From: Nemertoderma westbladi
Taxonomy: Eukaryota > Animalia > Xenacoelomorpha
DNA length: 64,000 nucleotides
Assembly (NCBI GenBank): GCA_032718475.1
Contig: JAUCBJ010007475.1
Coordinates: 18,617 to 82,616 of the forward strand
Reading direction: 5' to 3'
Positions 6,784-40,628 of the stretch are shown here, piece by piece. The notes under the pieces are model-generated. The model saw nothing but the letters and a program-made list of their open reading frames with translations. It made no database searches and had not been told where the DNA came from. Position 1 is the first letter of the stretch, and each line of letters begins with the position of its first letter. A program made the position numbers and the translations under genes.

Positions 6784-6815
<32 letters not shown>

Positions 6816-10783: not shown

Positions 10784-11240
10784 AATATCGGTATGAGAAC
10801 TCACGTTTAATTTATTAATTGTTACGATAAAAATTAATAGATACCTAGACCAACGGCATACCAAACCAAGCCAAATCTCCACATAGTTGTCGCAATTTCG
10901 TTCCTCCCTAGTCCCTTTTATCCCTTTCAAGTTGGTCAAGTTCGCCCACGTTAACGCCTAAGTGATCAGAGTACATGTGAAACACGAACCACCGTAGGCA
11001 ACCCGTAGGCAACCCGAAGGCTCCTCTCTCTTGGCTGTTACCTGTTAGGCAGGGAGGGAGGACTCCCAAGATCGAATATTTTCACTATCCAACCGTTTTC
11101 TTTACTTCCCCGACATCCATGTTACCGGCCAGGTACCCATTATAATAGATTATCTATATATAATAGAATAGCTGGGTGGTCTGAAGGTAGTTCATTCGAG
11201 TTAACAGCTTAACTAAATCGAGGATGTTCCGTATCTGGGT

Positions 11241-18370: not shown

Positions 18371-18407
18371 TATTATGGTCAATATTGTAGTCAATACAGT
18401 TTAGTAG

Positions 18408-18566
18408 TGTTATTTCAGTAATTCGTATAATATTCTGATAATAACATGACTACAGGTATAGTAAATCACATGCAGAGAGAACAACATAACGATACCGGTA
18501 GGTATATAACACAGTAGTGATAGATCCCAGTGCAAACGGTAGTTGCACATAATAACAATAATAACA
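18408..18566 (-). repeat. Copia 3' LTR
   Basis: Near-identical to 33485-33639; preceded by AGTAG. Confidence 0.9.
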
Positions 18567-18693: not shown

Positions 18694-18996
18694 TTAATGC
18701 TTCCACAAATCAGTTAAAAGTTCAATAAAGACACGTGGGTCACTCAAGATCCGAGAAAGAATAGCAGATGCGGAACTCTTGGCTTTCGTTAGGGTATCTG
18801 CCAGCTGTAGTTTAGTAGGAACCCATTTAAGTAGTTGAATATCTCCAATACGTTCTTTAATAAATGCAAAATCAATTGCAAGTCGCTTCTCTTGAGGAAT
18901 TTTTCCACTGACAAGGTCGTAAACCAACCCTTGATGGTCACAATAGTAGTAGACGTTTTTAACTTCAAGTTTTGTGATATTCTCAATGAGTATCTT
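18694..18996 (-). pseudogene. Copia RNase H C-terminal part
   Basis: KILIENITKLEVKNVYYYCDHQGL...EKRLAIDFAFIKE...WVPTKLQLADTLTK; joins in frame to ...GQYIKI at 32231 once the BEL element and one TSD copy are removed. Confidence 0.88.
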
Positions 18997-20067
18997 TGTT
19001 CGCGGTATTTCAACTTTCCATAACGCGAGTTGAATATTTTTGTATTTATTTAAAATTGATTATTCCGATATTATTACTGGGTGCGGGACCATGGGTTTTG
19101 GGCACATTCAATAAACTGGGGGCGATTTATGGGCGAACTTTGGGGCAACTTACAGGGTACGGGAATAATTTCATAATTATAAGGGCCAGGGGGGGGGGGG
19201 GGATGGAGAATTCAAGCAGTATTCAGGTTAGCCTGAGTACTATTAGGCCCTGGCCAACTTCCTGCTGCCTGTAGGGGTGGATTTGGTAATGCGCCAGGCC
19301 TAAAGGACAAGGACTGCCCTTAGCGGTCCCTGGCCAACAGCAGCTATTACGAGACTGAAAAGAACTCGGACTGCTGACTGCTTGTGTCAGGGATTTGCGA
19401 CGGGAAACGACAGCCCCTTAGTAGCCAAGCCGTTCTGGTTCTCGATGATCGAACCCTTCGGGGTTCGTGAGGGGTGGAATGGACACGCGAACGGGTCCAC
19501 CGACACGACAGACTCCTAGCCAAGCCGTACTGGTTCTCGATGACCATCCTTCGGGGTTCGAGAGGGGCGGTACGGATACGCGACAGAGTCCACCGACTGG
19601 ACCGACCCTTAGCTAAGCCGTGCTGGTTCTCGATGATCGTTCCCTTCGGGGTTCGTGAGGGGTGGAACGGACACGCGACAGGGTTGACCGACACCGACAC
19701 TACGGCACTAAGACTAGGACCAAGGGAAAAATCTGGGGAACATTAGGTAGGCTAAAATCTGAGCGAACAGTGGGTAATTAAATAATATACCGTAGGGATT
19801 TATATTATCGTGTATAATTATTGTGAATATTTGGTGTATATTGATTTGGGGAAGCCCAAAATTATTCTTAATCAGGTTTCAACTGTAGGAAGTTACATTA
19901 AAGAGTATATCCAACTAATGCAGCTTTTTATCAACCGCAAACTTGCATCTCAGAAAACATTCCTTCTCCACAATCAATATCCGGTGACTGGCCGGGGCTC
20001 GGTGGTCTGTAAAGTCACGTCTCCAGCATCGGCGTTTTTCCCCCCTGGTGTAGGGATAACGGCAACA
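18997..20067 (+). repeat. BEL 5' LTR
   Basis: Matches 31157-32230 with about 8 substitutions and a few small indels; candidate poly(A) signal ATTAAA at 19897-19902. Confidence 0.97.
19422..19700 (+). repeat. Three ~94-bp tandem units in the LTR, each with a C(UUCG)G-capped hairpin
   Basis: Units start TAGC(C/T)AAGCCG at 19422, 19517 and 19610; e.g. CGAACCC-TTCG-GGGTTCG; copies in the 3' LTR at ~31579-31860. Confidence 0.85.
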
Positions 20068-20069
20068 AA

Positions 20070-20082
20070 ATTAAGAATAATT
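20070..20082 (+). promoter_or_regulatory. Putative self-priming primer-binding site
   Basis: ATTAAGAATAATT starts after a 2-nt spacer behind the 5' LTR and is the exact reverse complement of LTR 19860-19872 (AATTATTCTTAAT); no TGG-starting tRNA PBS is adjacent to the LTR. Confidence 0.6.
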
Positions 20083-20276
20083 ACGTTCAACTTCAACTGG
20101 TGGAAGTTGAGAATCCTTCAATACTCTTCAAAAACTCTCTACGTGCTTGCCAGCACCCACTACGAGGAAACTCGGGTATTTGAGTTGAGACGAAGTCGTG
20201 GTTTAATTAATCAACAAACTCGATCTAACCAACTCGTAGTCGGCAGATCACATATTTGGAGAGTTGTTAACAGGGA

Positions 20277-20468
20277 ATGGAAGTATCGATCACACCCATT
20301 GATATAATTCAAGTTGAGCCAGGAATCTGGCACGTCGAAGTTGAAGTACAAGGAACGAACGTCGGACGATTCAGGATTACCGTTCGGGTGGTCCAAGCTG
20401 AGTACAATACCTACGAGGAACTGTTTTATGACATCGCGTATCTAGCTATCGACGAGGCGTTACAATGA
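20277..20468 (+). CDS. Small upstream ORF (63 aa) whose stop overlaps the gag start (ATGA)
   Basis: ATG in GGGAATGG context; protein-like alternating hydrophobic pattern (WHVEVEVQG..RFRITVRVV); TGA 20466-20468 overlaps gag ATG 20465-20467. Confidence 0.45.
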   Translation: MEVSITPIDIIQVEPGIWHVEVEVQGTNVGRFRITVRVVQAEYNTYEELFYDIAYLAIDEALQ

Positions 20469-23400
20469 CGACAAATAACGTATCCGATACCGACGAGATG
20501 GATCACCACACAGACTCGGAAGCCGACGAGGTACCAAACGTCAAGAACATGACCCGTCGGCTAGGGGCTCTCAAAGGTGGAGTAACCCGGGCGTATCAAC
20601 GGATGGAGAAACAACTCAAGGGAGTCAAAACCCCCCTCAATGAAGTACAAACTCAGCTTCAAAGTATCCGAAATATCCTACAGCGGTACGAAAGAATGAT
20701 ACAGGCGTACCAAGAGCTCGTTCCCTCCACCGATCAGGAAAACTACCCCAAGTTGGAAGAACACGTTGTACATCTAGATGGGTTCCGCAAACAACACCGG
20801 AGGACCCTCAGCCTTGTGAGAGGCTATGAAGAACAGTATTACAAGAGGGCTGAAAGAACAGACGCGGAATCAGTACGATCCTCCAGCATCAGGACAGCAG
20901 TACATCGCAAGAGAACGGGGTCCGCTAGAAATCAGCACTCCAGCGCTAGGAGCGAGATATCCGGCTCAGCGCGCAGTTCTCAAGGGGCGCCGCCACTCCG
21001 AGACCAACTGCGAGAACGGAAGGCATTAGCCCTCAAAGCTCGGATGGAAGATGAGTATATTCAACTGCAAGCCGAGCAAGATGTATTAGCCGCCGAAACA
21101 CAAAGGCGAGAGGCCGAACAAGCGGCTGAACGGCAGGCCGAACAACGCGAACAGGAGGCCGAGCAACGCAAACGAGAGGACGAACAACATAGACGAGAGG
21201 ATGAACGGCAGGCCGAACAACGCAAACAGGAGGCCGAACAACGCAAACAGGAGGCCGAACATCGCGGACGAGAGGCCGAACGAGAGATCGAACAACGTAA
21301 ATGGGAAGCAGAAATGCGTTAACAACACGCCGAGGCACAAGCAATTCTCATCCACAAAAAGAATGCGGATATTGCAAAACTCGCGGAATACGAAGCCGCA
21401 CTTATAGAACGGGATATTCAACTCTACGAGGACTGGGAAAGGGATATAGATCAGGAATATGAACCAATCCCGGTACCGGAATTAGAAAAGTCATTTATAC
21501 CGACAGCGGCGAAACTTCCGAAACCCGAGATCCCGCCGACCAAACAGTCTACGCTATCGGCACAAGCACCGGTGTTCCATCCCCCACCGGCTACGCTAAA
21601 GAATGAGGAACCTTATTTCCCATCCAACACCACGACAGCGAGTGTACCCAAGTACGAGCCTGAAAAGGACTTGGAACGGGACGCCACTCCCCGATCTAAC
21701 AACCCATTTACATCCACACCACAAACTCGTAGCCGCGTCATTATTAAAACTCCACCTATTATTGATCCATCAAGTATGGGAGTGAGTGCCAATAACTATA
21801 ACCCTCCGAGTCACTCTAGTTCAGACGACGTCAGCATCATCCGGGCGTTGGAGAACCGCCTTGCCATGCCTAAGATGGAGATTCGCACCTTCGAAGGAGA
21901 TCCCGTCGATTACCTCAGATTCAAGAAATGGTTCTTTGCGCAGATCGGATCAACGGACATAGCCGACGCACAGAAGTTGGTATATTTATCGCAATACCTG
22001 GGTGACAAACCACGCAGAATTATTGCATGTTTTGAAGGAGGTTCTCATGAGGCATACTATGACGCATGGAAAACTCTAGATAAAAGATACGGAAATACCG
22101 GAACTATAATTAATAAAACTCTAGAGAGACTGATACAGGACGCGGGATCACTAGGGGACCCACAGAACATCCAGGAATTCTCCGACTCTATGAAGGATGC
22201 CTACTATACTCTGAAACCCTTAAATAAGGAGGACCAGGTGAACAACATTCTAAACCTCCGACAGATCGCCCGGAAGTTCCCTGGATGGCTACAAAGTAAG
22301 TGGGCTTATAAATGTGTAGATCTCCGGCGCAGACATCCAGATCGAGATCCTAGCTTCCTTGAAATGTCGGCATTCCTGGACGATATCTCCGAAGCCATGA
22401 ATGACTCGATGTTTTCAAAACAGAGTCTCGCAAAGTTGGACGGAATAGAGAGCAACTCCAGGAGTAAGATAACCCCTCCGAAACCGAGATTCCGCCCCCC
22501 ACCGGTGAGTACGATGGCCATCACCATGGCCGAGGATTCCGACGACGAAGACTACGAGGAACCGACATCCGCCGAGGAATGGGCATGTTATCTCGCGAGT
22601 TGGGCACCCGAAAGGGAAGGCATCACAAATTCCCTGCTCTGTCTCTTCTGTGGGGAGAAACATAAAGTGGAATTCTGCAGAAAGTTTCAGTTCGCCGAAC
22701 TCGTCCCACGCTTCGAGGCGATAATGAAACACCGAGGATGCTTCCGGTGTCTTGGAACAGGTCACTATGTTCGGGAGTGCGACCAAAGATCATGCTGTGC
22801 TGTCTGTAACGACCAACGCCATCACACGCTCCTCCACATCCCCGCGAACTTCGATTTTACTACCCTCCCCTTTCGGATCGAAGCCAGGCGAAGAGGAGAA
22901 ACAAACCACGTCTTCAAAGCAACCCGGACAACCCAACGGAGAGAAACCAACCCGTTTAAAATCTCCACCGATACACCACAAGTAACAAATATTTCGGCCA
23001 CGATTAATCTTATAAATCGCCGCTACATGGTCTTCGCAAAGGTAATCCCAGTAAGGATCCAAGGAGTCGGCAAATCTTTGACGACACTCGCGTTCCTCAA
23101 TAACGGGTCCGACGGAACCATCATCGACCGGGATTTCCTCGAGCAACTCGGCCTAGAATATGAACCTTGTAAACGGCCCATACAAACCATCACCGATAAC
23201 AGAGAGGTAGAGTCCGGGGAGGTGCAACTCCAGATGGAAGGAGTGATGAAGGGCTACGAAAAGGTTAAGTTAACCATCAAGAACGCCTTGGTACACACAG
23301 ACCTCCGGGTGCGGTTCCGACAATCAGCCGAGTACGCACCCCTCATACAATTGGACCGAGACGATGTAGACCTGAGGTGCCCGCAGTTGGACGTAAACCG

Positions 23401-26400
23401 CATCACCCTACTGATCGGACTTGATACACCGGAACTACACATCCCCACCGGAGATATCGCCCGATCTATAAAACAGGATGACGGATTTTATGCTGAACGA
23501 ACAATAATGGGATGGACACTCTGCGGCATTAAGGAGGAAACTACTGACACCTATACCTACCTTCCCAAATGTCAGATTAAAGAGAATGCAACCTCCGTGG
23601 GTTATTGCTCGGCTTCGGATCTTGACGAGGATTTGTTTCTGGAAACCGAGAAAACCCAACGAGAGATGACGAAATATTTTAATTTGGAGACCCAGGAGTT
23701 CGCAGAAAAGGACGAAAACCCATCCGAAGAGGACCAATATTGTATGGACGTTCTCGACCAGGCCACGTTTAAAGACGGACACTGGTGTTCACCTATGTTA
23801 TGGAAGGACCCAAACAAACCAATGGCAAACAACGCCAGCATGGCACTTAGGTGACTTAAAGGGATTCTACGCCGGCTGAATGACCAACCCGAGATAAAGG
23901 AGAAATATAATACCGTAATCCAAGGATATCTCGATGATGGATTAGCAGAAATGGTACCACGGAATGAACTGCAAGGTGGTAAAAGAACATATTATCTCCC
24001 AACCCACTATGTAGTAGAAGCCCGCAAAGGTGGGAAAATCCGAGTGGTAAATGATGCTGCCGCTATGTACCAGGGCGAACCCCTAAACAGTCAGCTTTAC
24101 ACGGGACCCAGCATATATAGTGCACTCATCGGCGTATTGATCAGGTTCAGGGAAAACCGGGTAGCATTCACCTGTGACATCAAGGCCATGTTTCATCAAG
24201 TTCGTACGTTACCAAGAGACTCGGACTGTCTACGTATCCTATGGACGGATAAAACGCTAACTCAACAGGAGATTAGCCAACTCACGATAAAGGACGTAGA
24301 CGTAATGCGTATGGTCGTCAGGATCTTCGGCGCTAAGGACTCGCCAGTAGCATGCAGTGACATGCTAAAGAGGACGGCAACTATGTGCGAAAACGAGTTC
24401 CCTCCAACCGTCATAGAAACCATTCGACGATGCTTCTACGTGGACGACGGATGCGCCGGCGCGGATAATGTGGATGAGGCATATCGGCTAGCAATGGGGA
24501 TGGTAGAATGTCTAAAGAAAGGAGGGTTTCCGCTCGTGAAGTTCAGATCCCACGACAAAACACTTATGGAAAAGTTTCCGGAGGACATCCGGCTGGAAAA
24601 TAACAAAATGTATTCGGAGGATGTGGAACATTGTGTACTCGGGATTGAATGGGACATAGAATCAGACAAATTCATCTTCAAATATAAACCCCTACCCAAG
24701 CCTATGACAAAAAGGGGATGTTTGTCGATAAAAAGCGCCATCTTCGACCCACTAAATTTCATATCTCCAGTAACCTTGGCCGGAATGAACCTGATTAAGG
24801 AAATGTGGATAGAAGGACTGGGATGGGACAAAGAGCTCCCCCCACACCTCAGCATCAAATGGAGAAAATGGACGGAGCAGCTCGAACACCTACATCTTAT
24901 GCGGATACCTAGACCGTTCTTCCTCGATAAATTACCCACCGATATCTTCCAGCTCCACACCTTTTCGGATGCTTCGAATACCGGAATCGGCGTAGTCACC
25001 TTCTTACGGAGACTAAGTAACGATGGAAACGGCGATACAAGCTTCTTATTCTCCAAAGCAAAGACAGTATCCGGGGAATTCGTAGCAACGATTCCGAGAC
25101 TCGAGCTATAAGCTGCAGTTTGGGCAGTAAGACAGAATCGCATGGTCATGCGGAATCTACGGATCCCCATAGAATCTCAACACTTCTGGGTCGATTCGAG
25201 TATAGTTCTCTATTATCTCCACTCTCCATCACGGCGTCACACCACGTTTGTTGCAAACCGAGCCACGGAGATTAAACAGTGTACCGGCCGAGAACAGTGG
25301 CATCACGTGAACGGGAAGGAAAACCCAGCGGACTTATCAAGCCGAGGCGCCACCCCAAAACAACTCGGTAAGAGTAAACTCTGGCTTACAGGCCCGGAAT
25401 TCCTACGGCAGCCACAATTAACATGGAGTACCCGATTCGACCTCGAACTCGATAGCGGAAAATACTCCGAGGACGATAAAGAGATCCGTAAAGTCCATCG
25501 AAGCAACGCGGTGGAAATTTATAGTTGTCTGACTGAGCCTGCACAGGACTCGGGCAGGCACTATAACGTCGCGACGATCACTCAACTAGCGGCGTCTCTA
25601 CATCGGTTGATCGAGCGAGCTTCATCAATGAGACGGCTCGTCCACCACGTTATAACCCTCCGTAACTTCCTACGGTGGAAAAACAACAAACCGATAGTTC
25701 AACGGAATATACAAGAACTCATTATCGCGGAGAAGTGTATTGTTAGATATGTCCAGAGAGAAAGTTTCCCCGATGAATGGGAACAACTTAGTGCGGGCAA
25801 AACATTGAAACCAGACAGCCCAGTCTACCAACTGAGACCAATGATGGGCGAGGATGGACTGATCCGACTGAATACCCGGATGGCAAACGCACCGGTCGAA
25901 TATGAGGTTAAATACCCGGCACTTCTGCCCGGAACGTCGACACTAGCTAAGCTATTAATTCTACAATGTCACGAGGACAACCACCACGCAGGACAGAATT
26001 GGATTATAGCTAATATAAGACAAAGATATTGGATCACCCACATCCAGCCACTGATCCGGAAAGTGTTGAAACGTTGCTTCACCTGCAGACGTTACCTAGC
26101 ACCACCAATCACCCAAAAGATGGCCGACCTACCAGCCACCCGTCTACAAGCAGATTCCCCACCGTTCTACGTCACCGGAGTGGACTGTTTCGGACCGTTT
26201 ACGGTCATCGAACGACGATCCAACATCAAATGCTGGGGAGCCATCTTCACCTGCCTAAGGTCTCGGGCAATTTACCTAGATATCGTGGTAAATCTGACAC
26301 AACACGCATTCATCAACGCTCTGCGTCGGTTCGTGGCGAACAACGGGACATGCCGCCACATGTATTCCGATAATGGTACAAACTTTGTGGGAGGAGAAAG

Positions 26401-27142
26401 AGAACTTAGAGAGGCGATCGAGGGATGGTTTACCGATAACACCGCATCCCAAGTCTGGAAGGAACACCAGATACAGTGGCACTTCCAGACCCCCTTAGCG
26501 CCCCATACGAGCGGGGTATGGGAGAAACTGATCAAACTAGTGAAACGATCCATGCGCGTCGCTCTAGGCGATACCCGGGTAACCCATGACACCCTCCGCA
26601 CAACATTCTGCGAGATCACGGCTACCCTGAACAACCGACCCATTGTCCCTATCCGCGACGACCCCACAGACCTGGAGCCCCTCACTCCTAACCACCTACT
26701 GGGGAGACCCAAAACCCACGTTCTCCCGGAAACCATGTTCCCGGATCCCAACGAGATCGCGAAACATACAAACTGGAAAAAGGCCCAAGCGTTGGCAGCG
26801 CATTGGTGGAGAATTTGGGCCCAGGAGTACCTCATAACCCTCCGGACCAGGAGGAAATGGAACAACACCTACCGGAACGTCGCAGTTGGCGACATGGTAC
26901 TAGTTAAAGAAGATCTCAAAGACCGCATGCACTGGCCTGTGGCGCGGGTCGTGACCATACACCCAAGCAAAGACGGACTTGCAAGGACTGTGACGATACG
27001 AACGAAATCGGGCCACTACCAACGCCCTATCCAGAGGCTGTGCCTTCTTGAAGGCAATGATAGCGGTGATTCTACGAGAGGTGATAAGTTCCCTACTACG
27101 GATCCTGCTACAGACATTGGTGACAATTATAAATGCGTTTAA
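20465..27142 (+). pseudogene. BEL/Pao gag-pol polyprotein, single frame with three premature stops
   Basis: ORFs 20465, 21572, 23951 and 25142 share one frame, separated by TAA 21320, TGA 23852 and TAA 25109. Gag FEGDP..Y..F; triple Cys-His CLFC..H..C / CFRC...GH...C / CAVC...HHTLLH; protease site LNNGS (D>N); RT YYLP.H, DIKAMFHQV, FYVDD; RNase H LHTFSDAS, TIPRLEL; integrase HHCC, GVDCFGP, YSDNGTNF, GVWEKL. Confidence 0.95.
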
Positions 27143-27435
27143 ACCCTTCTCATCATGTTGACAAACTCTTATAAACTGTGATTTATCGACAATGAAAATG
27201 GACCCCCCTTAAAACAACTGTAACCACGCAATGGTATTTGTGTTTCCTCGTGTGTTATGTGGAGTCCAGCGTCACCCTGCAGATGTTTCGACTGACGCAG
27301 GGTCGTTTATGCATTGTTACCCTGATTTTGGTCATCAGGACCAACGATATTGGATTATTGGAAATGGTAAAGATTTGAAGTGGAATTCATTGTATTCATT
27401 GCAGTATGTTATGTTGTCCGTTGCGTGCGCAGTTC

Positions 27436-27835
27436 GGGGCGTAGGCGGTGTAACGAGTCCAGCTGTAGATCCCGGATTGCCGCGTAACACCCCCTCTATC
27501 CCGTTATTCTGGTGGGTCCATGGTGCATCCACATGACTTCGACGATAGAGGGTTTTATGTTTCTCAGTCGCGTTATTCTGGTGGGACCGTTGCGTGGATT
27601 TTGGGGCGTAGGCGGTGTAACGAGTCCAGCTGTAGATCCCAGAATGTTGCGTAACCCCATCCCACATGACTTCGTCGACTGAGCTTTATGTTGTTGGGAG
27701 TGTTATTCTGGTGGGTCCCTGGTGTATCCATGTGACTTCACTCCTAGCGTCTTCATTGTCCGTTACGTGCGCAGTTTGGGGCGTAGGCGGTGTAACGAGT
27801 CCAGCTGTAGATCCCAGATTGCCGCATAACACCCC
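27436..27835 (+). repeat. Three dispersed copies of an identical 38-nt core in the pol-ORF2 spacer
   Basis: GGGGCGTAGGCGGTGTAACGAGTCCAGCTGTAGATCCC at 27436, 27603 and 27778, each followed by a partly complementary ..TTGCCGCGTAACACCCC-like tract. Confidence 0.9.
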
Positions 27836-28390
27836 TTCCACGACAAAGATTAACCAAAGAAAATGATTGAATGTAGTTGGAAATGATGAAAAGGATCAGA
27901 CAACTCTACTATAAACCTGAATGATGACGCGTATGCTGATGAAAATGAAATGATGCGCACCCTGGTGCTGCGCTTATAACAAATGATGATAGCCGGGGGG
28001 CTATAACCCCAATGATGATGTGGAAATAAACAAAATGTGAAATAAATGGTGGAACTAAATGTGATGAAATATATGTGGAAATAAATGAAATGAGATGAAA
28101 TAATAATGAAATGAAAAAAGACGAAAAAAAAGGTATAAAAAGGTCTAAAGAAAAGAATTGGAAAAAAGAAAAGGACAAAAAAGTCATAAAAACTAGTTGG
28201 ATATTAATGTATAGCTATAGTAACTGTAAATGCTGAATGTATTAGCAATAAGATGATAGATGTCTATATAGCAATGTTATTTAATAAACTGAATTAAATG
28301 AAAAACTGAATTATTCTGCTATCGCTATAGTTTCAGACTTTCTGGACTTATAATTAACTGATCTAATTTGTAACGGATATAATCGTAAAT

Positions 28391-30991
28391 ATGGACCCAA
28401 ATCGCCAAATTATCGGCGAATTACGTAGCACGATAGATCTACTGGAATATTCGCAACCTGGATCCCCTGACTTTGATACAAATTGGAGTACCCTGCTAAA
28501 TGAGAACGTGCGAGTCATTAAATTCACCGGGCGAGAGGGACCGGATTCCAAGAATCTACGAGCCCTCCGGTTAGCCGATGCTAGTACGAGACTGAAAAGA
28601 ACTCGGAACGCAAAGGCTACCGGAGGGGATGACTTGTCGTATTGGGAAACGTTCCGGCAGAGCGTCTACAGATCCCGATGTTTGATCTACGACAACGAGG
28701 GAAATGCGACGCCCACCTCGAAAGCGATTACGTTGGCGAGATGTCAAAGTTTCGTCGACGACAAGAGTACGTACCTCGCCCACTGGGGAAACCTGTCGGA
28801 GTGTACGGCAACGCTTCGAGAGGAACGTATATCGACCATCCAGAATCGCGACGACTACCAGGAAAAGTACGGGGCGAAAGAATACGGTCGATCCTTAGTC
28901 GTCGTCCTCGGAACCCTGGACGGTTTGGTACTGGTGTGCCGAATATTCCCGACACCCAGACAGGAAGTGCAGGCAGCCGGAGCGATCTGGTTGCTAGCTC
29001 CGGAAATCCAAAAGATCCTCTTCGACTTCGACGTCATTAAAATCGGGTCGGATATCAAGGCGGACGTCCGGAACGACTACGCGAACGCTCCTGCAGGAAG
29101 AAACCGACGAGACGACCTCAACGCCCTTAGCCATTGCATCGACACTCAAACGCTACTAGCCTGGTTACGATTCGCCGAGTTCATGCGAGGATTCCAAGAG
29201 GTGAGACCGACGAAATCCGGGATCGGCTACCTCGCTGTGCTAAACGGCGGTATCGACTTCAAACCCCAGAAATTCCGGGACTATAATAAAATATATGGTG
29301 GATACCCGGAATTAGAAATAAAGAGCGAGCGAGAGGGTCGATGGAAGGACGTTGATCGGAATTGGACGATACACCAAAGGTGGGAGAATCCCGATCGACG
29401 GAACTACGTTTACGTCGTTATGGAATGCTACACCGTCGCTAAGTTTATCTGTAAGACTCTCGATAACCTCATTACGGCGGTTCCCCTTTCCTTCGTCGAC
29501 TACGACTGGAACGAGGTCATAAACCACGCGTTCAAAGCGGTCGAGAACATTACACCGGGAGAGACAAAAACGCTCGCCGTTATCGATTCCTGGGACGAGA
29601 GCGGACCTTACGACATCCCTACGATTACCGAACTTCTCGGTGCGGATGAGCCTCTGATCTCTTCGGAAGGGGAAGAGATATGGCTAAACGAGGGTGTTCT
29701 ACTCTCCACCCCGAAGCGACAACTCGAGCCGGAGGCCGCTTACCAACCGGCCGCCAAACGGGTTGCCTCGGCCGAACCGATGAAGAGAACAGGTGCTTAC
29801 ACCCCACGCGGCTCCGGTAGCCCCGTGAGGGAGGTAGCCACTACATCTGCATTGAGCGACTTCGGCGACATATGCCAACGGTTATCCCCGTATCCTTTCC
29901 CGGGTGGCGAAGATTGGTCGTCGGAGATTCCGAGTACCAGCCACCAACGGACCCGCTCAGCGATACTGGTCGAGGAGGGCCCCAGCGATGCGCCGACCCC
30001 CGACGATCTCCTCGGTATCCCTCCGTCTAAAACCCCGGCTCCTCTTCGCCGACCAGCGGTGGCTACTACACCCGCCGTTCCTCAGGACCCTATGCGACTA
30101 ACCCGTTGGTACGCCGAGCAAACTGAATGGATCCACCGCCAGAAACGGTCGTCCGAGTTGAGACCAACGGGACACAAAGAAGGTTATCGAAGCGAGAACC
30201 TACTACGCAAAAGCCTTGCATTCCGCGGGCTACCGGCCACCGCGAATATTCCGAGGAGCGACCGACGACTCGAATATTACGTCGGCCTCCCGATTCCGAT
30301 ATTCCCCGGTCGAGAGATGCAGTTGGAGGTGTGCGGCGACTGTGGTTCGGAGCAGTGCCCACGCGGTAGAAGGAATCGGGTTACCGATTCATGCCTCCAG
30401 CTCCTCGGGATACTCTATTGCCCATACTGCGCGACATCGGGCCACGACGTTTCCGTCTGCCCGATCCTATATAACCTCTGCACCACGTGCGGTTTCCATG
30501 GACATTCCTCTAGCCCCCGCTGCTATATCAAATGTCCAACCAAGGACGTAACCGCTATGGGAAATATGGTCATGTTTGAAACATACGCAAACAGCCACTT
30601 AAAGACCAAGGTTCGGAGAAACGCTCGGAATATCGCGCAGGAGATGGCGTGCGGGTATTTCTCCTTCCCGGAACGCCTCCACACGTCGGCCACGCTGCCT
30701 TTCCATTACGTGGACTTGTTGCTGAGCGCTGGATTATTCGGCCCATTCGAAGTCATTAGACGCTTATACTCGTATAAAGAGGAGTTTGGTGACGGAGAGT
30801 GGTTCCTCGAGGCTCGCAACTCCGAGTTGGAACGACGAACCGATATGATCCCGATGCCATCGAAAGGAAGAGCCGCCAGAAGACAAGCCGAAGCGTTGCT
30901 CACGATGGATGTTGACGCTCCTCTACCAGCTATAGCGATCGATGAGAGCCGACGGGCGAAAAGGCGAAAGGTGTATCAGAGAAAGAAATAG
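28391..30991 (+). CDS. Retrotransposon accessory protein: DEDDy (RNase D/WRN/Mut-7-like) 3'-5' exonuclease domain, Pro/Ser-rich linker, CCHC zinc knuckles, basic C-terminus
   Basis: Uninterrupted 866 aa. ExoI-like LIYDNEG; LAPEIQKILFDFDVIKIGSDIKAD (cf. LPxxLxxLLEDPxIxKVGxxIxxD); CIDTQTL; SGIGYLA; ExoIII-like YVVME; CPYCATSGHDVSVC (C-x2-C-x4-H-x4-C) and CTTCGFHGHSSSPRC. Domain call is by motif recognition only. Confidence 0.8.
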   Translation: MDPNRQIIGELRSTIDLLEYSQPGSPDFDTNWSTLLNENVRVIKFTGREGPDSKNLRALRLADASTRLKRTRNAKATGGDDLSYWETFRQSVYRSRCLIYDNEGNATPTSKAITLARCQSFVDDKSTYLAHWGNLSECTATLREERISTIQNRDDYQEKYGAKEYGRSLVVVLGTLDGLVLVCRIFPTPRQEVQAAGAIWLLAPEIQKILFDFDVIKIGSDIKADVRNDYANAPAGRNRRDDLNALSHCIDTQTLLAWLRFAEFMRGFQEVRPTKSGIGYLAVLNGGIDFKPQKFRDYNKIYGGYPELEIKSEREGRWKDVDRNWTIHQRWENPDRRNYVYVVMECYTVAKFICKTLDNLITAVPLSFVDYDWNEVINHAFKAVENITPGETKTLAVIDSWDESGPYDIPTITELLGADEPLISSEGEEIWLNEGVLLSTPKRQLEPEAAYQPAAKRVASAEPMKRTGAYTPRGSGSPVREVATTSALSDFGDICQRLSPYPFPGGEDWSSEIPSTSHQRTRSAILVEEGPSDAPTPDDLLGIPPSKTPAPLRRPAVATTPAVPQDPMRLTRWYAEQTEWIHRQKRSSELRPTGHKEGYRSENLLRKSLAFRGLPATANIPRSDRRLEYYVGLPIPIFPGREMQLEVCGDCGSEQCPRGRRNRVTDSCLQLLGILYCPYCATSGHDVSVCPILYNLCTTCGFHGHSSSPRCYIKCPTKDVTAMGNMVMFETYANSHLKTKVRRNARNIAQEMACGYFSFPERLHTSATLPFHYVDLLLSAGLFGPFEVIRRLYSYKEEFGDGEWFLEARNSELERRTDMIPMPSKGRAARRQAEALLTMDVDAPLPAIAIDESRRAKRRKVYQRKK

Positions 30992-31147
30992 TGGATCGGG
31001 ATATGCCAGGAACATTTATCGAACATTTATTTTTATACAAACTCTAGGCCAAATTAATTAAAAACTATGCAATATTAAATTTGGGTTTTTTATATTGGGA
31101 ATGACCTACGCAAACTCAATCTACCGACAGACTTCACGAAGGTCATT

Positions 31148-31155
31148 GGGGGGGA
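31148..31155 (+). promoter_or_regulatory. Polypurine tract of the BEL element
   Basis: GGGGGGGA-C immediately before the 3' LTR TGTT. Confidence 0.8.
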
Positions 31156-31156
31156 C

Positions 31157-32230
31157 TGTTCGCGGTATTTCAACTTTCCATAACGCGAGTTGAATATTTT
31201 TGTATTTATTTAAAATTGATTATTCCGATATTATTACTGGGTGCGGGACCATGGGTTTTGGGCACATTCAATAAACTGGGGGCGATTTATGGGCGAACTT
31301 TGGGGCAACTTACAGGGTACGGGAATAATTTCATAGTTATAAGGGCCAGGGGGGGGGGGATGGAGAATTCAAGCAGTATTCAGGTTAGCCTGAGTACTAT
31401 TAGGCCCTGGCCAACTTCCTGCTGCCTGTAGGGGTGGATTTGGTAATGCGCCAGGCCTAAAGGACAAGGACTGCCCTTAGTGGTCCCTGGCCAACAGCAG
31501 CTATTACGAGACTGAAAATAACTCGGACCGCTGACTGCTTGTGTCAGGGATTTGCGACGGGAAACAACAGCCCCTTAGTAGCCAAGCCGTTCTGGTTCTC
31601 GATGATCGAACCCTTCGGGGTTCGTGAGGGGTGGAACGGACACGCGAACGGGTCCACCGACACGACAGACTCCTAGCCAAGCCGTACTGGTTCTCGATGA
31701 CCGATCCCTTCGGGGTTCGAGAGGGGCGGTACGGATACGCGACAGAGTCCACCGACTGGACCGACCCTTAGCTAAGCCGTGCTGGTTCTCGATGATCGTT
31801 CCCTTCGGGGTTCGTGAGGGGTGGAACGGACACGCGACAGGGTCGACCGACACCGACACTACGGCACTAAGACTAGGACCAAGGGAAAAATCTGGGGAAC
31901 ATTAGGTAGGCTAAAATCTGAGCGAACAGTGGGTAATTAAATAATATACCGTAGGGATTTATATTATCGTGTATAATTATTGTGAATATTTGGTGTATAT
32001 TGATTTGGGGAAGCCCAAAATTATTCTTAATCAGGTTTCAACTGTAGGAAGTTACATTAAAGAGTATATATATCCAACTAATGCAGCTTTTTATCAACCG
32101 CAAACTTGCATCTCAGAAAACATTCCTTCTCCACAATCAATATCCGGTGACTGGCCGGGGCTCGGTGGTCTGTAAAGTCACGTCTCCAGCATCGGCGTTT
32201 TTCCCCCCTGGTGTAGGGATAACAGCAACA
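31157..32230 (+). repeat. BEL 3' LTR
   Basis: Direct repeat of 18997-20067, followed by TSD ATCTT. Confidence 0.97.
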
Positions 32231-33162
32231 ATCTTGATATATTGCCCAATATCAACACCCTCGACTAATGCATATGTTTGAGATGACAGTGTACTCTTCG
32301 TCACTCTCCTGGAGCAACGGCTAGACCAATAAACTAAGAATTGTCCCCAAAATACATAAACTGCCAATCGTGAAGGATTTCCGAATGCTGCATCAGTAAA
32401 TACATGAAGATCAGGAAATTCATGCTCAACGCCAACGGATTCTGACGACACGGGTAGAAATTTCAATGTAAAGGATTCCATTTGACTTCGTCTCACTTGT
32501 TTATTCAAGAGTCGAATATCGCTTGTTGTTGGCTTCGAGACTTGTGAGAGCGAGCCGATTTGAAATGCCAAGTCAGGGCTTCTATTTGAGACAATCCACA
32601 TAAATTTTCCTAATAATGCACGAAACATATATTCAAAGTCGTCATCTGTTGCCAAATCGATTTCGTTGAGAGTTCGAATGTACTGGGTTTGAGACAATTC
32701 AAAACCACCATAGTCTAACTTTCGAATATGTACTCCAAGAAATTTAGTCCAACTGCTGCCAATCTGAACAATTTTACCAACTTTTAGCAATGTCTGCAGA
32801 CCATCACAAACTTTAATCACTGATGATGGTAATCCAGCAACTAGAATATCATCCACATGTGTGGTAATAATACCACACAAATTTCCTTCCTCGTTATATG
32901 TCATGTACATGGCTGGATCAAAGAAACTTTGAATGTTTCCCAGTTGACGTAGATTGTCTTGAAGTTTCAAGAACCATTCTCGTGAAGCATCGGAAAGGCC
33001 GTAGACAGCCTTCTTTAATTTCCAGAATCGAGGAGCATCAACGTTCTGAAACTCAACAGGTGGTTTAACATATACAGATCTATCTCTTGACAAATTACCA
33101 CTTTGTAAGAAGGCAGTTTTTATATCAACAGCCCATATATTCCAGTCAAATATGGTTGCCAA
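32231..33162 (-). pseudogene. Copia reverse transcriptase and RNase H N-terminal part
   Basis: DIKTAFLQ, WKLKKAVYGLSDASREW, DPAMY, HVDDIL, VFTDAAF, RRVTKSTL. Confidence 0.93.
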
Positions 33163-33639: not shown

Positions 33640-35003
33640 AGTAGGGTAGGCCTACTTCTACTTCTACTGCGGTCCCGACTTTATCTATTATCTCTTTATT
33701 GATTGGTCTATACGTTTTTGATTGTTTGTACAGAGAAGCGACTGTTTTAGGTTGTTTTGTTTAGATTGTTTTGGATTTATTATTTGTATCGACTAGAAGT
33801 TTTGTAAAATTTGTGAATCTGTACGTTTTATTGTTTTTTTGACAATTCCAATAACTTTTGTACCATTTGTTTTGTACTGTTCGTTTTATTTTTTTATAAT
33901 GTTTGGGATGAATATACTTTTTAACTCTTAGTTACTACTGCTACTTTGATTATTTTACTGTTTGTGACGTTTAGCGCCTTACCGTACTTTTATTATTATT
34001 ATTATTAACATACACAAAAGATTAAATAATATATATCATAGTTGTGCTGTTGTGGTACATAATGTGCACTGGTTTGAAGGCCCTTGACAATGTAAAGGAG
34101 ATGTTAAACACAGCACGTTTCTCATTGTGTCCATGTTTCCATTTTCAAATATTCCTGTTAGACGGTTCAACACAACTGCAGTACAGCAATTACTGGTGCC
34201 AGACTATCTAAATATTGGGTGTATACGCTACGCCGACAATAAATTTTTATTTTTAAATTTCTTCTAGAGCATATTTTTATCAAGATTCCAAATTTGAGAA
34301 CCGTTTAGCATGATCTGTCTTAATTCTTGAGATATGGCTGTATATCTGTTTGACTGTCGGTCTGTCCGTCACCGTCAGTATGTATCCAAAACAATAGAAA
34401 GCATATACTACTGCATCGGTTTTCTTGGTCGGTGACTTCATTTCTGATGTCAGTATTCAAATTTGGCCTCGTCGTTTCTGTTTGTATGCTTGCCCTGCCC
34501 GTCAAAATAAAACCGACAGCCTGTTTCTACTGTAAGTTATTGATGACTAAATAATAAAATAGGCCTATTAAATATAATGCAAAAATAAACAGATACAGTA
34601 CGCCAGGGATCGAACACGTCTAATGTCTATGTTGATAAGTAATAGCGAAGTATCCATTCCACTAATCGGAAAGAATGAAAAAATAGGCACAATGAGGAAC
34701 GAACTGTGTTTAACGCCTCCTACAATGTAAATGACACAGTTTTGTATGTATTTCGTTGGCGGCAAATTCAAATCGAAGCGCCAACTGCCAGCTCTGAGAA
34801 TCTGATAGAGAACTCTGATTACCCTGCTGCCTGGCCAGGGGCTGAGTTGTAGTTGGACGTGTATGTCGTGTAGACGTACAGACGTACCGTCGGTAGATAA
34901 GGCTACTGGCAGACACTGATTACCGTACATCTGTACTGCCATTGACTGCTGTACACGACTGTACAGTATCAGAGTACAGCCAACACTTCACAGCTGCACA
35001 GTA

Positions 35004-38000
35004 CAGTAGGGAACACATGCCCAAACAGGCAGTGCAGACTTTGCAAAATGCACTGCCATATTAGGCAGTTTTAGCCTAAATTTCTGATAAAATGTCAATT
35101 TTTATTAACTTCCTGCTCGAAGGGCCCCTTTTTTATTTCATGGGATGAAAATATAATATGTATTGCAAGGTAAATATAAAATTTGGTAGACTTTCACAGT
35201 TGGGTTTTAGAGACATCAGACTTTGAAAATTGCTAGTCAAAAGCATGCACTGCCCAAAATAGCAGTGTTCTGCTTAATATAGCAACATACTGTTTGAACT
35301 AGCAGTGCAATGCTTAAAACGGCAGTGCAAAATCAGAAAATGCATTCAGCATTACATACAATTCAGCAATCCTGATGGAAACATTATATATATATAACCA
35401 ATATTCAACAGATTTTATAAATCAATTTTTCACAGTTTGAAACACCAGTAGACTGGGAAAGTTGGAAAAAGAAAGACCCGATCATTTTTTCCTGAATTTG
35501 TAAATATTATATCTGTATATGGTATGTTGGTTTGTATTGCATTCTCTATATCCGTTACTATTGTCGAATGTATGACTTTGTATGTGTTTTAATCTACGTA
35601 TTCCTATTGCCTATTGTAAACATAAACTCTCATCTCAGTTTTAGCTTAATTTATACTATCGCAATCGCAATATTAGCTTGTTAATTTTAATTTTTAATTT
35701 GTAATATTTTTATATTGTAGATATTCAGTATTATGTTTGTTTTACTTGTTTGTTTTACTCTACATGTTTTACTATTAACGTTTTAAGCTATCCCAGTATC
35801 CAGCCACTCACAGCCAGCCTATTGTACTTGTCTGCTTGTACACAAAAACATTAGTATCAAATTTTGCTTTGAAAAAATATACTGTTGCAACATGTGTTTG
35901 TTAGAATATATTATCTTTATTATTATTTTATATTTATGTTGGTTTTACTCATTGCTCACTCTATCTATAATTAACGTTTTCCATCTACTGTAAAACCAAC
36001 ATAATACTGTATCAATTTACAATTAATTGATTTATATCAATTTTAGATTACTGGTCAGCCGGTAAGTCATACTGTATCAAAATACTAGTTTATTATATAC
36101 ATTTTATGTGTGAACGTGTAAATCTAAATATAGACTATATTTTAGTATCTAAATTGGATTTAATTATTTCTTACTAATGATCTGATGATGACTTCTTATA
36201 CAGTAATTTGTATTTTGTTAACAAATAATGCCTTAGATCAGTTAATCCTTAAACAGTGAAATTTCTTTATACATCCATAAATTATTAAACAATAATTTTA
36301 TCAAGGGGAGGTAAATTTCTGTACAGACCCCTTCTGCCCTTAAAGATATGACATTTTTAAATATGATATATATTAGGCCTAATGATTTTATTACTAAATA
36401 TTTACTATCAATAAATATCAGTTACCATATCAATCAGTCAATAAACATAAATTTTATCATTAGCGAACCGTAACTTTTAATATTAACGAACTATAGGCCT
36501 ATAATACATATTGTTATAATGGCCACATATATATTAATATTTTATACAGTATAATAAATATATTAATAAATTACCTGTCAGTGACTGTGTAAATTGTTAA
36601 CCAGTTAACTGAATAACTAACAAAAATAAAATATATATAGGCCTATAAATTGCTTTCAATAGGATAGTCTTATATACTGTAGATAGATAGGCTGTTTAGC
36701 AGATACAGTACAGACATAGATAGATAAACTCTGAAGGACTGAATGATGCCTGGCATTGCCAGGCTCTCCAGCTCTCCTACAGTCAGACAGAAGGAATTAA
36801 TTCAATACCATAACTGCAGAACTGCCATTTTAGGCAGTGCATGTTTTTGACTTGCAATTTTCAATGTCAAATATCTCCAAAACCCAACCATGAAACTCTT
36901 ACTACATTTTGTATTTACCTCCAATATATATCATATTTTCATCCAATGAAATAAAAATGGGGCCCTTCCAGCCTTCCAGCAGGAAGTTGATAAAAATTCA
37001 CATTTTATCCGAAATTTAGGGTAAAACTGCCTAATATCAGTAAGGGAAAATACCCCGAATCGGGGTATAGCAGCAAACCCCCATTCGGGGTTTTGTGATA
37101 CCCCGATTCGGGGTTCTCCCATAGACATTTTTTCTCCTTCATTTCAGCATATGAAGATTTTAATTCCGCAATTTCGTTTTAACATATTCGAATACACATT
37201 GGTGTGTACTACAAATAAGAAAACTTTGGAGTAATAATGAAATCTTCCGGCTTCGATATTGTACCGGAAAATCTAATGTAAATTATACCCCGAATCAGGG
37301 TATCCAGGACTCCCTGTACCCCGAATGGGGGCTTGTGATATATTCATACAGCCTGCAGAAGCACCGATTCGGGGTCAGTATTTTCTAGTACACCGATTCA
37401 GGAACTCAATTTTCTCGAAAATACACTGAATCGGCTCTTTTTTTCCACTCTGACACTGATTCGGTGTATATTTTCTAGTCGTTTTTTATATTTTTTAATG
37501 GATTTTCGTGATGTAATGTAATTTGTCATTGTATTTAATGTATATTACGTTATAGTGCTTATTGTTAGACAAATTGCATAATCATATCTATATTTAATAT
37601 TTAAAGTGTGATACAGTTTTGGTGTACTATTATAATGAAAAATATGCATTATTTATTCTCATTTTCACCATAATAATTTATCGTGGGCCCTTCATAACCC
37701 TTCACTTCATAACCACGCAAAACCCGACTTGGCGAATTAATATCCCGCCTCAATGTTAAATTCTCAATTTAGGGAAAGGAGCAGGTTACAGTGGCACGTT
37801 ATTTTAACCAAAACAATAAACTAAGCACAATAGAATAGGTTTCAGTCTTATTTTTGAGAGTAATCCGCTGTTATTTGCTTCGAATTTACTTTGGAAAGGG
37901 ATTAATTTTTATTGCGTCCAGTCCCCCCCCCCCCCCCCCCCCCCCTACAGTAGTATGTTAATTCAATACTAAGTAGCTACAGTACATAATACTACCGTAG

Positions 38001-39367
38001 TTCTCTAGTTTTCACGTACTGTATATAGGTTTCACGTAGGCCTACTGTATTTTATTGTCTATAAATAATATGCAAGCCATTGCAATGTAATGTATTCATG
38101 TATCCATGTATGCCATTGTCATATATTATAATTCTCGTATTCTTCTATAATTCGTAGGCCTATTCGTAGGCCTATAATTCTCTATAATCATCATAATAAT
38201 TATCATAATAATATTATATCTCGACTCATCGTTTAATATGCTAAATCTGGCAGGGTAAATATCTGCTTGCGTCTTATACGTGCTTGCCAGAACGGGCAAG
38301 GTTATTATACGTGCTTGCCCAAACGGGCAAGGTTATTATACGTGCTTGCCAGAACGGGCAAGGTTATTATACGTGCTTGCCAGAATGGCAGAATGGGCAA
38401 GGTTATAAGTGCTCGCCAGAAGAATCTAACAAGATTCTATTGAAGAGTCTAACCAGGGCGCATCTCTGCCTTGCGTCATTAAATGGTAGCTAAATGTGTA
38501 CTGGAAATTCCTCTGGGGAGTATAGCTCTGGGGGTCCACAATGGAAATAAGTCGTCTGACTTTGTGCGCAATCCCTGGCCTAACGGCCGAACAAAATGTA
38601 CTGTATTTTACTTCAGCTTTTTTCCGTCAATCTAGTTTCCTTTATTGTTTTGGATAGAAGCACTGCAACTTTAACCAGCTCTTGTCAGTTAATTACGATT
38701 AGCTTCGTTTATTGTATTAGTTAACTGTAACCGTAAAACACTGTAACAGTTAACTGTGAACTGTAACCTGCTCCTTTCTCTTAATAATGGAATTTACTGT
38801 ACTGGTACTAATGTACTGGTACTCCGTGTTGATTAAAAAACATACTTTTTGTTATCATATCCATATTTATAAATCAGTTGATAGACAAATAACACTGCAA
38901 TAATAATAATGTAAATGTACAATATAGTAATATACTACAGTACCGTACCTCCTGACCTCCCGTACTTCAGTAGGTAGGCCCTATATCTATCATTATAGTT
39001 ACCACATTTATATTATGACTGTATGAAACAGTATTGTACTGCACAAAATGTAATTTTCGCACTATTAATTCCAGTCTGACGTGAGTGAAACATCATTTTT
39101 CTGGAGGGGCGTGAATAACTCCTATACCCCGATTCGGGGTATATCTAATTTTTCCGCTGCCTGAAGATTTTCTAGTAGAGCACCGATTCGGGGTATAGCT
39201 TTCTACTGAAAATCTCCAATCAGTGTCACTATTTTCCACTATGACACCGATTCGGTGTATAGAGCTGTACCCCGATTCGGAGTATTTTCCCTTACTGAAT
39301 ATGGCAGTGCATTTTTCAAAAATGGCAGTGCGTCTGTGCTGCCAATTCGAGCATGTGTTCCCTACTG
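35004..39367. mobile_element. Non-autonomous DNA transposon with long imperfect TIRs and 5-bp TSD CAGTA
   Basis: CAGTAGGGAACACATGC...GCATGTGTTCCCTACTG; empty site in copy A at ~2316-2320. Confidence 0.85.
37038..39297. mobile_element. Nested non-autonomous DNA transposon, 5-bp TSD AATAT
   Basis: CAGTAAGGGAAAATACCCCGAATCGGGGTA...TACCCCGATTCGGAGTATTTTCCCTTACTG; many subterminal CCCGA(A/T)TCGG motifs; inserted in the right TIR of the outer element. Confidence 0.88.
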
Positions 39368-39712
39368 CAGTACTGCAGTAGTATCGGTCAGTCGGTACTA
39401 CTCTGCTACTGCAGTACTGTCAGACTGCAGACTGTAGTAAGTAAGGAAAGGGAACACAAGCCAGCTAGTCAACTGGCAGACTGGTCAACTAGTTGCCACA
39501 CTATTGCCAGACTACACTAAGGTACCGGTCTGCCGGTACCGTACTTACCGGCTACTGCCTGTACTGTCCTTCGTCTGTTCGTCGCCTACCGGGCTACCGG
39601 CTGACCTATACTCCCTGACTCCAGGACTCCCAGACTCCTGTCTGCCTGTACCTGTCTGCCTGTTGACCTGTGTACTGTACAGTTTCAGTTTCTGGTACAA
39701 TAATAAAACCTA

Positions 39713-40555
39713 GGGTAAGACGGGGTAAAATGGGACATGGGGTAAAATGGGACATGTCGGCGTCGGGGTAAAATGGGACATGCATATTTTTTGCCAATTT
39801 TTTTTTAAAGAACACTTTTAGGTCTGTTTTAATACGGTATATTTTTAATTGAGAAACTAAATGTTACATTGTTATATAGGCCTAGCACATATGATGAGAT
39901 CAAGATCACGCGATGAAAGCAATTTGTTAAGCGCGTATACACTTAAAAGTTAGGACACTTCCTATCATTCATTTTCTTCGATATTATATGCATTAGAATC
40001 GCAATCATCGATTTAGTGGGTGTAGAACAAGTCCAAATGTCCAAATTCCTGATCGTTTTGGAGTTACACAGATTTGTAGTTTTACCTTGATACATGTCTG
40101 CATGTAGATAGGCGTAACTCCGTAAATAATGCCTAGATGATTTTTCTCTGTGATTGTTGAGTTTTATAGCTTTTATAGCTACTACTGCATTTAGTTATTA
40201 GGCCTAGCTCATACTGGTCTTAACTACTCATACTCATACTGCTATTTCAACTCATACTGTCATAGGCCCTAATCTTAATCTAACTTCTGAACTTGACTAA
40301 CTAACACTAACAATGCCTCATGTCCCACCTTACCCCGGATGTCCCACTTTAACCCCACTCGGGGTAATGTGGGACACTGCGATTTTTTTAAAAATAAACC
40401 ACCTGAACCAAAGGCTCAGGGGTTTATTTTGGTACAATCTGATAGCCCAGAGTTCAAATGTACAGAATATGCTTTGATTATATCCATCCAGGAAAATCCC
40501 TCTTGGTTATAGAACCAAACATACCAAACTTGTCCCATTTTACCCCGTCTTACCC
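39713..40555. mobile_element. pogo/Tc1-mariner-type MITE, TA TSD
   Basis: TIR GGGTAAGACGGGGTAAAATGGGACA / TGTCCCATTTTACCCCGTCTTACCC; empty site AAACCTACTC in copy A at ~2662-2671. Confidence 0.88.
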
Positions 40556-40628
40556 TACTCTTATCTTACTGTCTTAGGGATGTATGGTCACTAGCTAACT
40601 AGGGCTGTAGGCGTCCGACAGTAGAGGG

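Follow-up and report, generated by a model that had tools for sequence, protein, structure and literature searches.

The closest described systems to the gene reported here are the third open reading frames (ORF3s) of the bdelloid rotifer retroelements Juno, Vesta and the Terminons (Athena). They encode DEDDy nucleases with a DEED motif, whose activity is left untested in the available text of the report (Rodriguez, Kenefick and Arkhipova, 2017, PMC5408684). An earlier note on the present locus had pointed to this precedent; that text confirms it, and it is repeated in the available parts of PMC5718144, PMC6431247 (Terminons) and PMC6338049. For BEL/Pao retrotransposons, the third genes described in the accessible passages of PMC8742986, PMC9094657 and PMC7084138 are env-like glycoprotein genes (Tas, Atlas virus) and Cer19-ORF2. 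The extra genes in those of PMC3118150, PMC11662393, PMC12440569, PMC9094657 and PMC7084138 are likewise env genes or Cer19-ORF2, with no element-borne exonuclease among them. Our literature search turned up no account of an exonuclease ORF in BEL/Pao; its scope left out Repbase, GyDB and subscription journals, where a prior annotation is possible. Here we analysed a stretch of 64,000 nucleotides from Nemertoderma westbladi (assembly GCA_032718475.1, contig JAUCBJ010007475.1, positions 18,617 to 82,616), referred to as the window, whose own numbering is used below. It contains a BEL/Pao element with an ORF3 that is under purifying selection and appears to encode a domain of the DnaQ-like 3'-5' exonuclease type followed by a zinc module.

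ORF3 is free of stops over 866 codons, compared with a longest stop-free run of at most 305 codons in its frame after shuffling (2,000 base shuffles), which bears out the earlier description of an unbroken ORF in the env position. Its features are the following.

28391..30991, forward strand: ORF3, 866 codons, stop-free, between the integrase and the polypurine tract (PPT)
28502..29590, forward strand: predicted DnaQ-like (DEDDy-derived) 3'-5' exonuclease domain, amino acids ~38-400
28691..28699, forward strand: likely ExoI, D101-x-E103, aligned to the D-x-E of relatives and of bacterial PF01612 domains, on a modelled strand
29039..29065, forward strand: ExoII, K-x-G-x5-D225 (D225 at 29063-29065), with the same spacing in 7 relatives
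29411..29425, forward strand: ExoIII, Y341-x3-E345, with E at the canonical D position
29591..30190, forward strand: low-complexity linker, amino acids ~400-600, 48% P/S/T/E/A, not conserved
30332..30523, forward strand: zinc module, with a probable first finger (C648-C668) and two knuckles (C677-C690 and C697-C711)
30524..30790, forward strand: conserved C-terminal helical domain, following the zinc module
30914..30988, forward strand: basic tail resembling a nuclear localization signal, 9 K/R in the last 25 amino acids

The earlier note had picked out D-N-E (28691-28699), KIGSDIKAD (29039-29065), IDTQ (29138-29149), Y341 (29411), E345 (29423-29425), two Cys-Cys-His-Cys (CCHC) knuckles (30419-30523) and the basic tail, all of which were found again at these positions. 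The tail is common to the related proteins P0001, P0004 and P0005, which have 8, 11 and 9 K/R in their last 25 amino acids. That note had also claimed that ORF3 has neither a signal peptide nor a transmembrane helix. The first part stands, the N-terminus not being hydrophobic (best 9-residue mean 0.82). As to the second, amino acids 165-188 are hydrophobic enough to clear a naive cut-off for transmembrane segments (Kyte-Doolittle 19-mer values of up to 2.08), but they are modelled as two strands that form a beta hairpin of the nuclease core.

Single-protein searches of Pfam, NCBIfam and PDB sequences with ORF3 gave nothing meaningful. Three word-index protein searches gave no match either, which says little because an alignment with members in the same collection also gave none. 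A family profile of 9 rows, searched against 177,635 PDB sequences, gave just three matches at an expectation value (E) of 1 or less, namely EXD2 and the WRN exonuclease of mouse and of human, all of them DEDDy nucleases (E 0.03-0.09). A language-model search of the ESM Atlas placed 24 of 30 matches in PF01612 clusters. The best score was 0.92, with 157 out of 256 features where members of one family usually reach 170, and the three top-ranked of the 30 matches are unnamed. Profile-profile comparison with 7 bacterial PF01612 domains gave a score of 35.4 (E 2e-4), compared with at most 16.9 in 30 column-shuffled template controls; ExoI, ExoII and the DT motif fell in register with the bacterial domains, and ExoIII did so in global mode only. 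The AlphaFold2 model of the domain, searched with Foldseek, gave 39 DnaQ-like entries among the 44 matches listed, with Egalitarian at the top (E 0.037). In a wider structural search all 50 matches listed were DnaQ-like exonuclease domains, with Nibbler at the top (Z 7.9, root-mean-square deviation 4.7, 181 residues aligned) and trypanosome RNase D at Z 7.3. The entries counted here as DnaQ-like are members of one superfamily. A DnaQ-like or DEDDy fold had been set beforehand as a test, and profile, language-model, profile-profile and structure searches all predict it. The agreement of these different methods makes a DnaQ-like 3'-5' exonuclease fold for the N-terminal domain well supported as a prediction; neither the nuclease subfamily nor the substrate is well supported.

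ORF3 has relatives. A phmmer search of 1.84 billion representatives gave 6 matches at E<=0.001. Four of them (P0001, P0002, P0004 and P0005) have an N-terminal domain like amino acids 40-400 of ORF3 together with the zinc and C-terminal domain; the other two have only the latter. A degenerate pattern of the invariant zinc residues, which matches once in the window and in 0 of 100 shuffles, picked out 22 loci among metagenome contigs and 6 among prokaryote genomes; for viral contigs the counts were 0 and 1. None of the viral and prokaryote loci scored with a nuclease profile, and only L025 and L026 did so, weakly, with a zinc profile. Of the metagenome loci, 14 scored with the zinc profile at E<1e-27 (10 were used in building it) and 7 with the nuclease profile (six used in building it; L011, which was not, at E 8e-7). 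The remaining 8 of the 22 were set aside: 5 resemble ORF1 of non-LTR elements, 2 are Nanos-like and 1 lacks an open frame. The first five (L002, L003, L010, L018 and L022) are knuckle ORFs fitting the same pattern, followed in L002, L003 and L010 by an endonuclease/reverse transcriptase ORF as in non-LTR elements. The Nanos-type zinc finger genes (L006:2958-3662 and L007:2009-2713) lie in AT-rich contigs as incidental pattern matches, and L007 also has RING and vWA genes.

One metagenome locus, L009, carries a 2,062-aa open Pao gag-pol whose reverse transcriptase-RNase H is 24% identical to that of the window. Directly after this gag-pol lies an ORF3 of 1,369 aa with D-x-E, D and Y-x3-D, the canonical tetrad, and the zinc module; a G-run and then a TGT near the contig end follow it. 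Because this distant BEL/Pao element has the same ORF3 in the same position, ORF3 is, by sequence, a family that recurs in the same place. The link between ORF3 and BEL/Pao rests on these two distant elements; the remaining loci of the family lie on contigs of 1.4-5.4 kb that carry no pol. Some members depart from this layout. In L005, L013, L014, L019 and L021 the same zinc module ends a coiled-coil, low-complexity protein with no nuclease domain, and P0002 (L016:124-2022) has a degenerate nuclease and a doubled zinc and C-terminal domain. In L008:3-1133 and L015:3-956, minus strand, the zinc-module gene is followed by long, helical-looking ORFs of the same orientation. These could represent Gag N-termini, in which case that gene would sit upstream of gag. 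BLAST found no similarity between them and Gag N-termini.

The motifs of the predicted nuclease domain fall in the ExoI-III register proposed earlier. D225 lies eight residues past the K of KxG, a spacing also found in relatives and references. When the domains are trimmed, the alignment made by the tool itself and two MAFFT modes set D101-x-E103 on the D-x-E of the relatives, and ExoI is preceded by a helix, F-x-x-S-[VI], common to them. An insert of ~45-55 amino acids between ExoI and the next strand is absent from the relatives. Among the 11 proteins with the domain, ExoIII reads Y-x3-E in 3 (the window protein, P0001 and P0004) and Y-x3-D in 6 (L004, L008, L009, L011, L017 and L020), and is lost in 2. 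The glutamate is not a private lesion, since P0001 and P0004, the two closest relatives, also have it. In a tree of 17 nuclease domains with long branches, the three Y-x3-E proteins form a single clade in 4% of bootstrap trees. We file the domain as DEDDy-derived rather than canonical because its ExoIII is Y-x3-E. The catalytic residues are retained among relatives at 15-27% identity.

The zinc module holds 13 (Cys/His/Tyr/Leu/Gly) of the 14 invariant columns of alignment A5, each present in 14/14 rows, and in the relatives these trace out three fingers. The earlier note had described its two CCHC knuckles; they are of RNA-binding type by profile matches, and a third zinc finger probably lies upstream of them (C648-C651...C668, 30332-30394). 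Its three Cys are invariant in 14/14 rows, and a His found in the other 13 rows is absent in the window copy. The zinc profile matches the knuckles of retroviral nucleocapsid, Lin28, Air2 and trypanosome RNase D (E 4e-5 to 1e-3), as any pair of knuckles would. Fold searches with the model of the zinc and C-terminal part gave no meaningful match (a single row at E 7.2 in one, a best Z of 3.2 in the other). Its Atlas matches (DUF8363, zf-CCHC) all lie below 0.9 and serve as leads only.

ORF3 is under purifying selection. Contigs of runs X1 and X3 number in the thousands over all 30 bins of the region, a depth that fits a family of many copies, though depth is not a copy number. In run X4 contigs ORF3 is continuous with the spacer upstream of it and, on its other side, with the PPT and the start of the long terminal repeat (LTR). 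We classified the best-supported differences, namely the best 40 of 230 rows and 4 ORF3 rows among the best 40 of 991. The 44 differences in ORF3 comprise 27 silent changes, 17 replacing changes and 0 stops, whereas 12.4 silent changes are expected if the same base changes are placed randomly. None of 20,000 simulations reached 27 silent changes, and omega is roughly 0.25. A single contig accounts for 27 of these rows (28 differences in all); 17 of them are silent against 8.1 expected (P 0.0004). Within the nuclease domain 13 of 19 differences are silent against 5.7 expected, and the replacing differences listed, 17 in all, spare the D/E/D/E acids and the Tyr. The 16 gag-pol rows include 7 silent ones against 4.6 expected, which is not significant. 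A check set in advance, whether the ORF is present and evolves non-neutrally in related copies, is answered by these counts. The integrity of ORF3 beside a broken gag-pol carries no weight alone, because the chance that none of three stops falls in ORF3 is P 0.37 by length.

Two further records of run X4 touch ORF3. The one at 28457-29089 represents a sister subfamily that has ~83% identity across the nuclease domain and no length change there beyond an insertion of 3 bases. One contig omits 1,158 bases (a multiple of 3) between 29446 and 30605, with ends AT..AG and 29 letters on its short side, which may be a deletion copy, an odd splice or an assembly artefact.

A candidate splice acceptor for ORF3, TTTCAG, ends at 28336, with no ATG between 28336 and 28391. 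No RNA run is recorded among those that contain the sequence. No splice joint at 28336 was found in the contigs; those of runs X4 and X5 cross it unspliced with no loose end there, and neither show nor exclude splicing. Run X4 has loose ends at 19214, ~32 nt after a TATAA at 19178-19182 in the LTR, and at 28457, which we take to resemble a template-switch cDNA adapter. Run X4 is guessed to be DNA and may be cDNA, and the loose ends are a hint only, as contigs give no starts or levels.

The element around ORF3 has the following parts.

18992..18996 and 32231-32235, no strand: left and right copies of the 5 bp target site duplication, in line with the empty-site joint
18997..20067, forward strand: 5' LTR, TGT...ACA, 1,071 bp
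20432..27142, forward strand: gag-pol in a single frame, with Gag (DUF1759 and zinc knuckles), protease, reverse transcriptase, RNase H and integrase
27143..28390, forward strand: non-coding spacer of 1.25 kb between gag-pol and ORF3
31138..31156, forward strand: PPT, purine-rich, its G-run abutting the TGT of the 3' LTR at 31157
31157..32230, forward strand: 3' LTR, 1,074 bp

The two LTRs are 98.4% identical (1,078 alignment columns), and both start with TGT and end with ACA. The element measures 13,234 bp. Contigs of runs X1 and X3 preserve its empty site, joining 18991 to 32231 with 5 ambiguous letters. The insertion target is a minus-strand copia-type reverse transcriptase remnant (RVT_2, E 1e-21). 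This reverse transcriptase/RNase H remnant (18694-18996 and 32231-33162) is split by the element and occurs unsplit in runs X1 and X3. In gag-pol, Pfam matches over the cut-off are DUF1759 (E 5e-14), Peptidase_A17 (1e-30), Integrase_H2C2 (7e-9) and DUF5641 (1e-29); protease, reverse transcriptase and rve match weakly, in the order Gag-protease-reverse transcriptase-RNase H-integrase. This is the BEL/Pao set, by which the element is BEL/Pao, and the LTRs, target duplication, domain order and PPT all agree with the earlier identification. The three in-frame stops reported in gag-pol are indeed there, at 21320, 23852 and 25109. The active-site aspartate of the protease motif (23048-23230) is apparently absent, a further sign that gag-pol is dead in the window copy.

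Immediately past the 5' LTR (20068-20110) a primer binding site is not obvious, the first TGG lying ~28 nt beyond the LTR end; no tRNA genes were found in the window. Belpaoviridae are described with a primer site of 18 nt for tRNA-Arg or tRNA-Gly, LTRs of 0.2-1.2 kb with TG...CA ends and a length of 4.2-10 kb (ICTV profile, PMC8742986). The present element exceeds this length because ORF3 adds to it, and we take the range as descriptive. In the spacer, segments of ~134 nt are repeated at 27500-27830, and one unit is skipped in a run X3 contig. The LTRs contain internal repeats at 93-95 nt spacing (19455-19692 and 31612-31851). Elsewhere in the window, a fragment of a LINE-type (long interspersed nuclear element) reverse transcriptase lies left of the copia remnant at 17700-18421 (RVT_1, E 8e-15), and adjoining minisatellite arrays with units of 25, 35 and 44 nt and a strong C skew occupy 11235-15221. 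Several long direct repeats and inverted-repeat pairs of 98-100% identity (1342-8436 vs 34050-46633; 35058-37037; 37037-39298) are probably other recent transposons or duplications.

What might ORF3 do for the element? By analogy with known nucleases, we propose that it is a selected accessory gene whose predicted exonuclease and zinc module weaken RNA silencing by the host through action on the 3' ends of RNA, a reading to which we give a probability of roughly 0.4. The protein would be made apart from Gag-Pol and act in trans. Its knuckles would bind single-stranded RNA, and the nuclease would shorten or destroy guide RNAs aimed at the element or remove decay tails from the element RNA. The E in ExoIII would keep or tune metal binding rather than kill the site. 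To our knowledge, enzymatic silencing suppressors encoded by animal retrotransposons are little known. A viral exonuclease directed against host immunity is described for arenaviruses in the available part of PMC7968707. A bolder version, in which ORF3 represents a widespread unnamed BEL/Pao family of active small-RNA-trimming exonucleases (a transposon's own Nibbler), guided by zinc fingers against PIWI-interacting or small interfering RNAs and with D-E-D-E as a functional variant, is doubtful in our view.

Several observations weigh against the counter-silencing proposal and the prediction it builds on. Counter-silencing is our best guess by analogy, and for the rotifer elements the available text of PMC5408684 gives no clear link between DEDDy ORF3s and copy number and no demonstrated activity. 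Confidence in the nuclease model is modest (9 sequences, alignment A4; mean predicted local distance difference test 52.6, predicted template modelling score 0.57). No Foldseek row reaches E<=0.001, and the best Z is below 8, with DNA dinucleases and the proofreading domains of DNA polymerases within 1 Z of Nibbler. When the relatives are left untrimmed, three alignments leave a gap at ExoI, and the ExoI register at D101/E103 is for this reason likely but not certain; alignment A4 is a trimmed version that already places D101 in ExoI, and a profile built without the window protein matches amino acids 159-332 only. The ExoIII of the window copy is non-canonical, and 2 of the 11 domain proteins (P0002 and P0005) have lost catalytic residues and kept the zinc module. 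A pol gene is present in only 1 of the 22 metagenome loci (L009). Finally, broken copies of ORF3 exist, since one contig of run X4 lacks 4 bases at 30864.

An active nuclease could instead serve the replication of the element itself, trimming the 3' end of the element RNA or primer, or mismatched or untemplated cDNA ends before strand transfer or integration. The structural scores leave room for such a role: WRN, EXD2 and the domains with which family A and B polymerases proofread lie within ~1-2 Z of Nibbler, and WRN and EXD2 are the sole profile matches at E<=1. The knuckles resemble nucleocapsid, and priming may be unusual, as no primer site that starts with TGG occurs in the 28 nt that follow the 5' LTR. 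Processing of the 3' end of element RNA is also what Rodriguez et al. propose in the available text (PMC5408684). However, ORF3 is a gene of its own, 1.25 kb downstream of Pol, and how its product would enter the particle is not evident; moreover, most BEL/Pao elements replicate without it (PMC8742986). We consider this role unlikely.

Also unlikely is that the DnaQ fold has little or no activity and serves instead to bind RNA, as an adaptor or decoy, in the manner described for Egalitarian, EXD1 and Maelstrom. Egalitarian being the top Foldseek row is consistent with this, as are the E in ExoIII, the insert after ExoI, the degenerate sites of P0002 and P0005 and the five zinc-module relatives without a nuclease. 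On the other hand, all four acids and the Tyr are present in the window protein and untouched by the 17 replacing differences, and ExoIII is canonical in 6 relatives.

Far less probable is that ORF3 encodes a membrane protein or one resembling env, or that it is a chance capture of a host gene which, in this one copy, is by now decaying or domesticated. The env position, the hydrophobic stretch at amino acids 165-188 and an intact ORF3 beside a broken gag-pol could suggest it, but in the model the stretch forms two strands within a nuclease fold, and the sister copies are under selection and joined to the spacer and the PPT/LTR. Hydropathy and the model fold search found no signal peptide, transmembrane anchor or fusion-glycoprotein fold, in line with the non-env nature claimed earlier. 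Domestication of ORF3 was considered and rejected, the LTRs being <2% apart and the absence of stops from ORF3 having the chance given above. That short motifs and a model of low confidence merely coincide to suggest an exonuclease, as the blank single-protein searches and the weakness of every individual score might suggest, is hardly credible given that four unlike methods (profile-PDB, profile-profile, language model and structure) give one superfamily and that relatives have canonical tetrads.

These findings extend exonuclease cargo to a further LTR superfamily, here with an RNA-binding-type module and purifying selection, and indicate that env-slot ORF3s that are blank in Pfam can conceal enzymes. 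The rotifer ORF3s posed the question of function in 2017, and no test is reported in the literature covered; a dozen diverse relatives, whose sites are canonical, variant or dead, make it directly testable in vitro. Among other BEL/Pao genes, the env genes of Belpaoviridae are membrane glycoproteins, unlike ORF3, and Cer19-ORF2 shares the presence of CCHC knuckles inside BEL/Pao LTRs. Cer19-ORF2 was rejected as a homologue on its longer, Gag-type knuckle spacing; no exonuclease is mentioned for it in the available parts of the paper and supplements (PMC7084138).

Among cellular proteins, ORF3 shares the predicted fold and the ExoI-III layout with Nibbler/Mut-7, EXD2, WRN, EXD1 and Egalitarian, its nearest structural and profile matches. 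It differs from these animal DEDDy proteins in its low identity to them (10-18%), the E in ExoIII, the long inserts, the fused zinc module and its location in a mobile element. Trypanosoma brucei RNase D (7c42/7c45) likewise combines a DEDD nuclease and a CCHC knuckle in one chain, and both halves match ORF3. That protein trims guide RNA tails; unlike ORF3, it is a cellular enzyme, and we see no evidence of direct descent. Juno and Vesta are Ty3/gypsy-like elements. Their ORF3s and those of the Terminons, compared with ours by description only, are also separate ORFs past pol in the env position that encode an RNase D-like DEDDy nuclease with no transmembrane domains and a D-to-E change in the tetrad. 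The substituted position differs by the wording of PMC5408684, DEED in the rotifers and D-E-D-E in the window, and its available text describes no CCHC knuckle module, which the window ORF3 has, only a Cys-His-Cys motif for Vesta2/5. In that text, where the words BEL and Pao are absent, rotifer env and GDSL ORF3s show no departure from neutrality within the genome, whereas the present ORF3 is carried by a BEL/Pao element and is under purifying selection.

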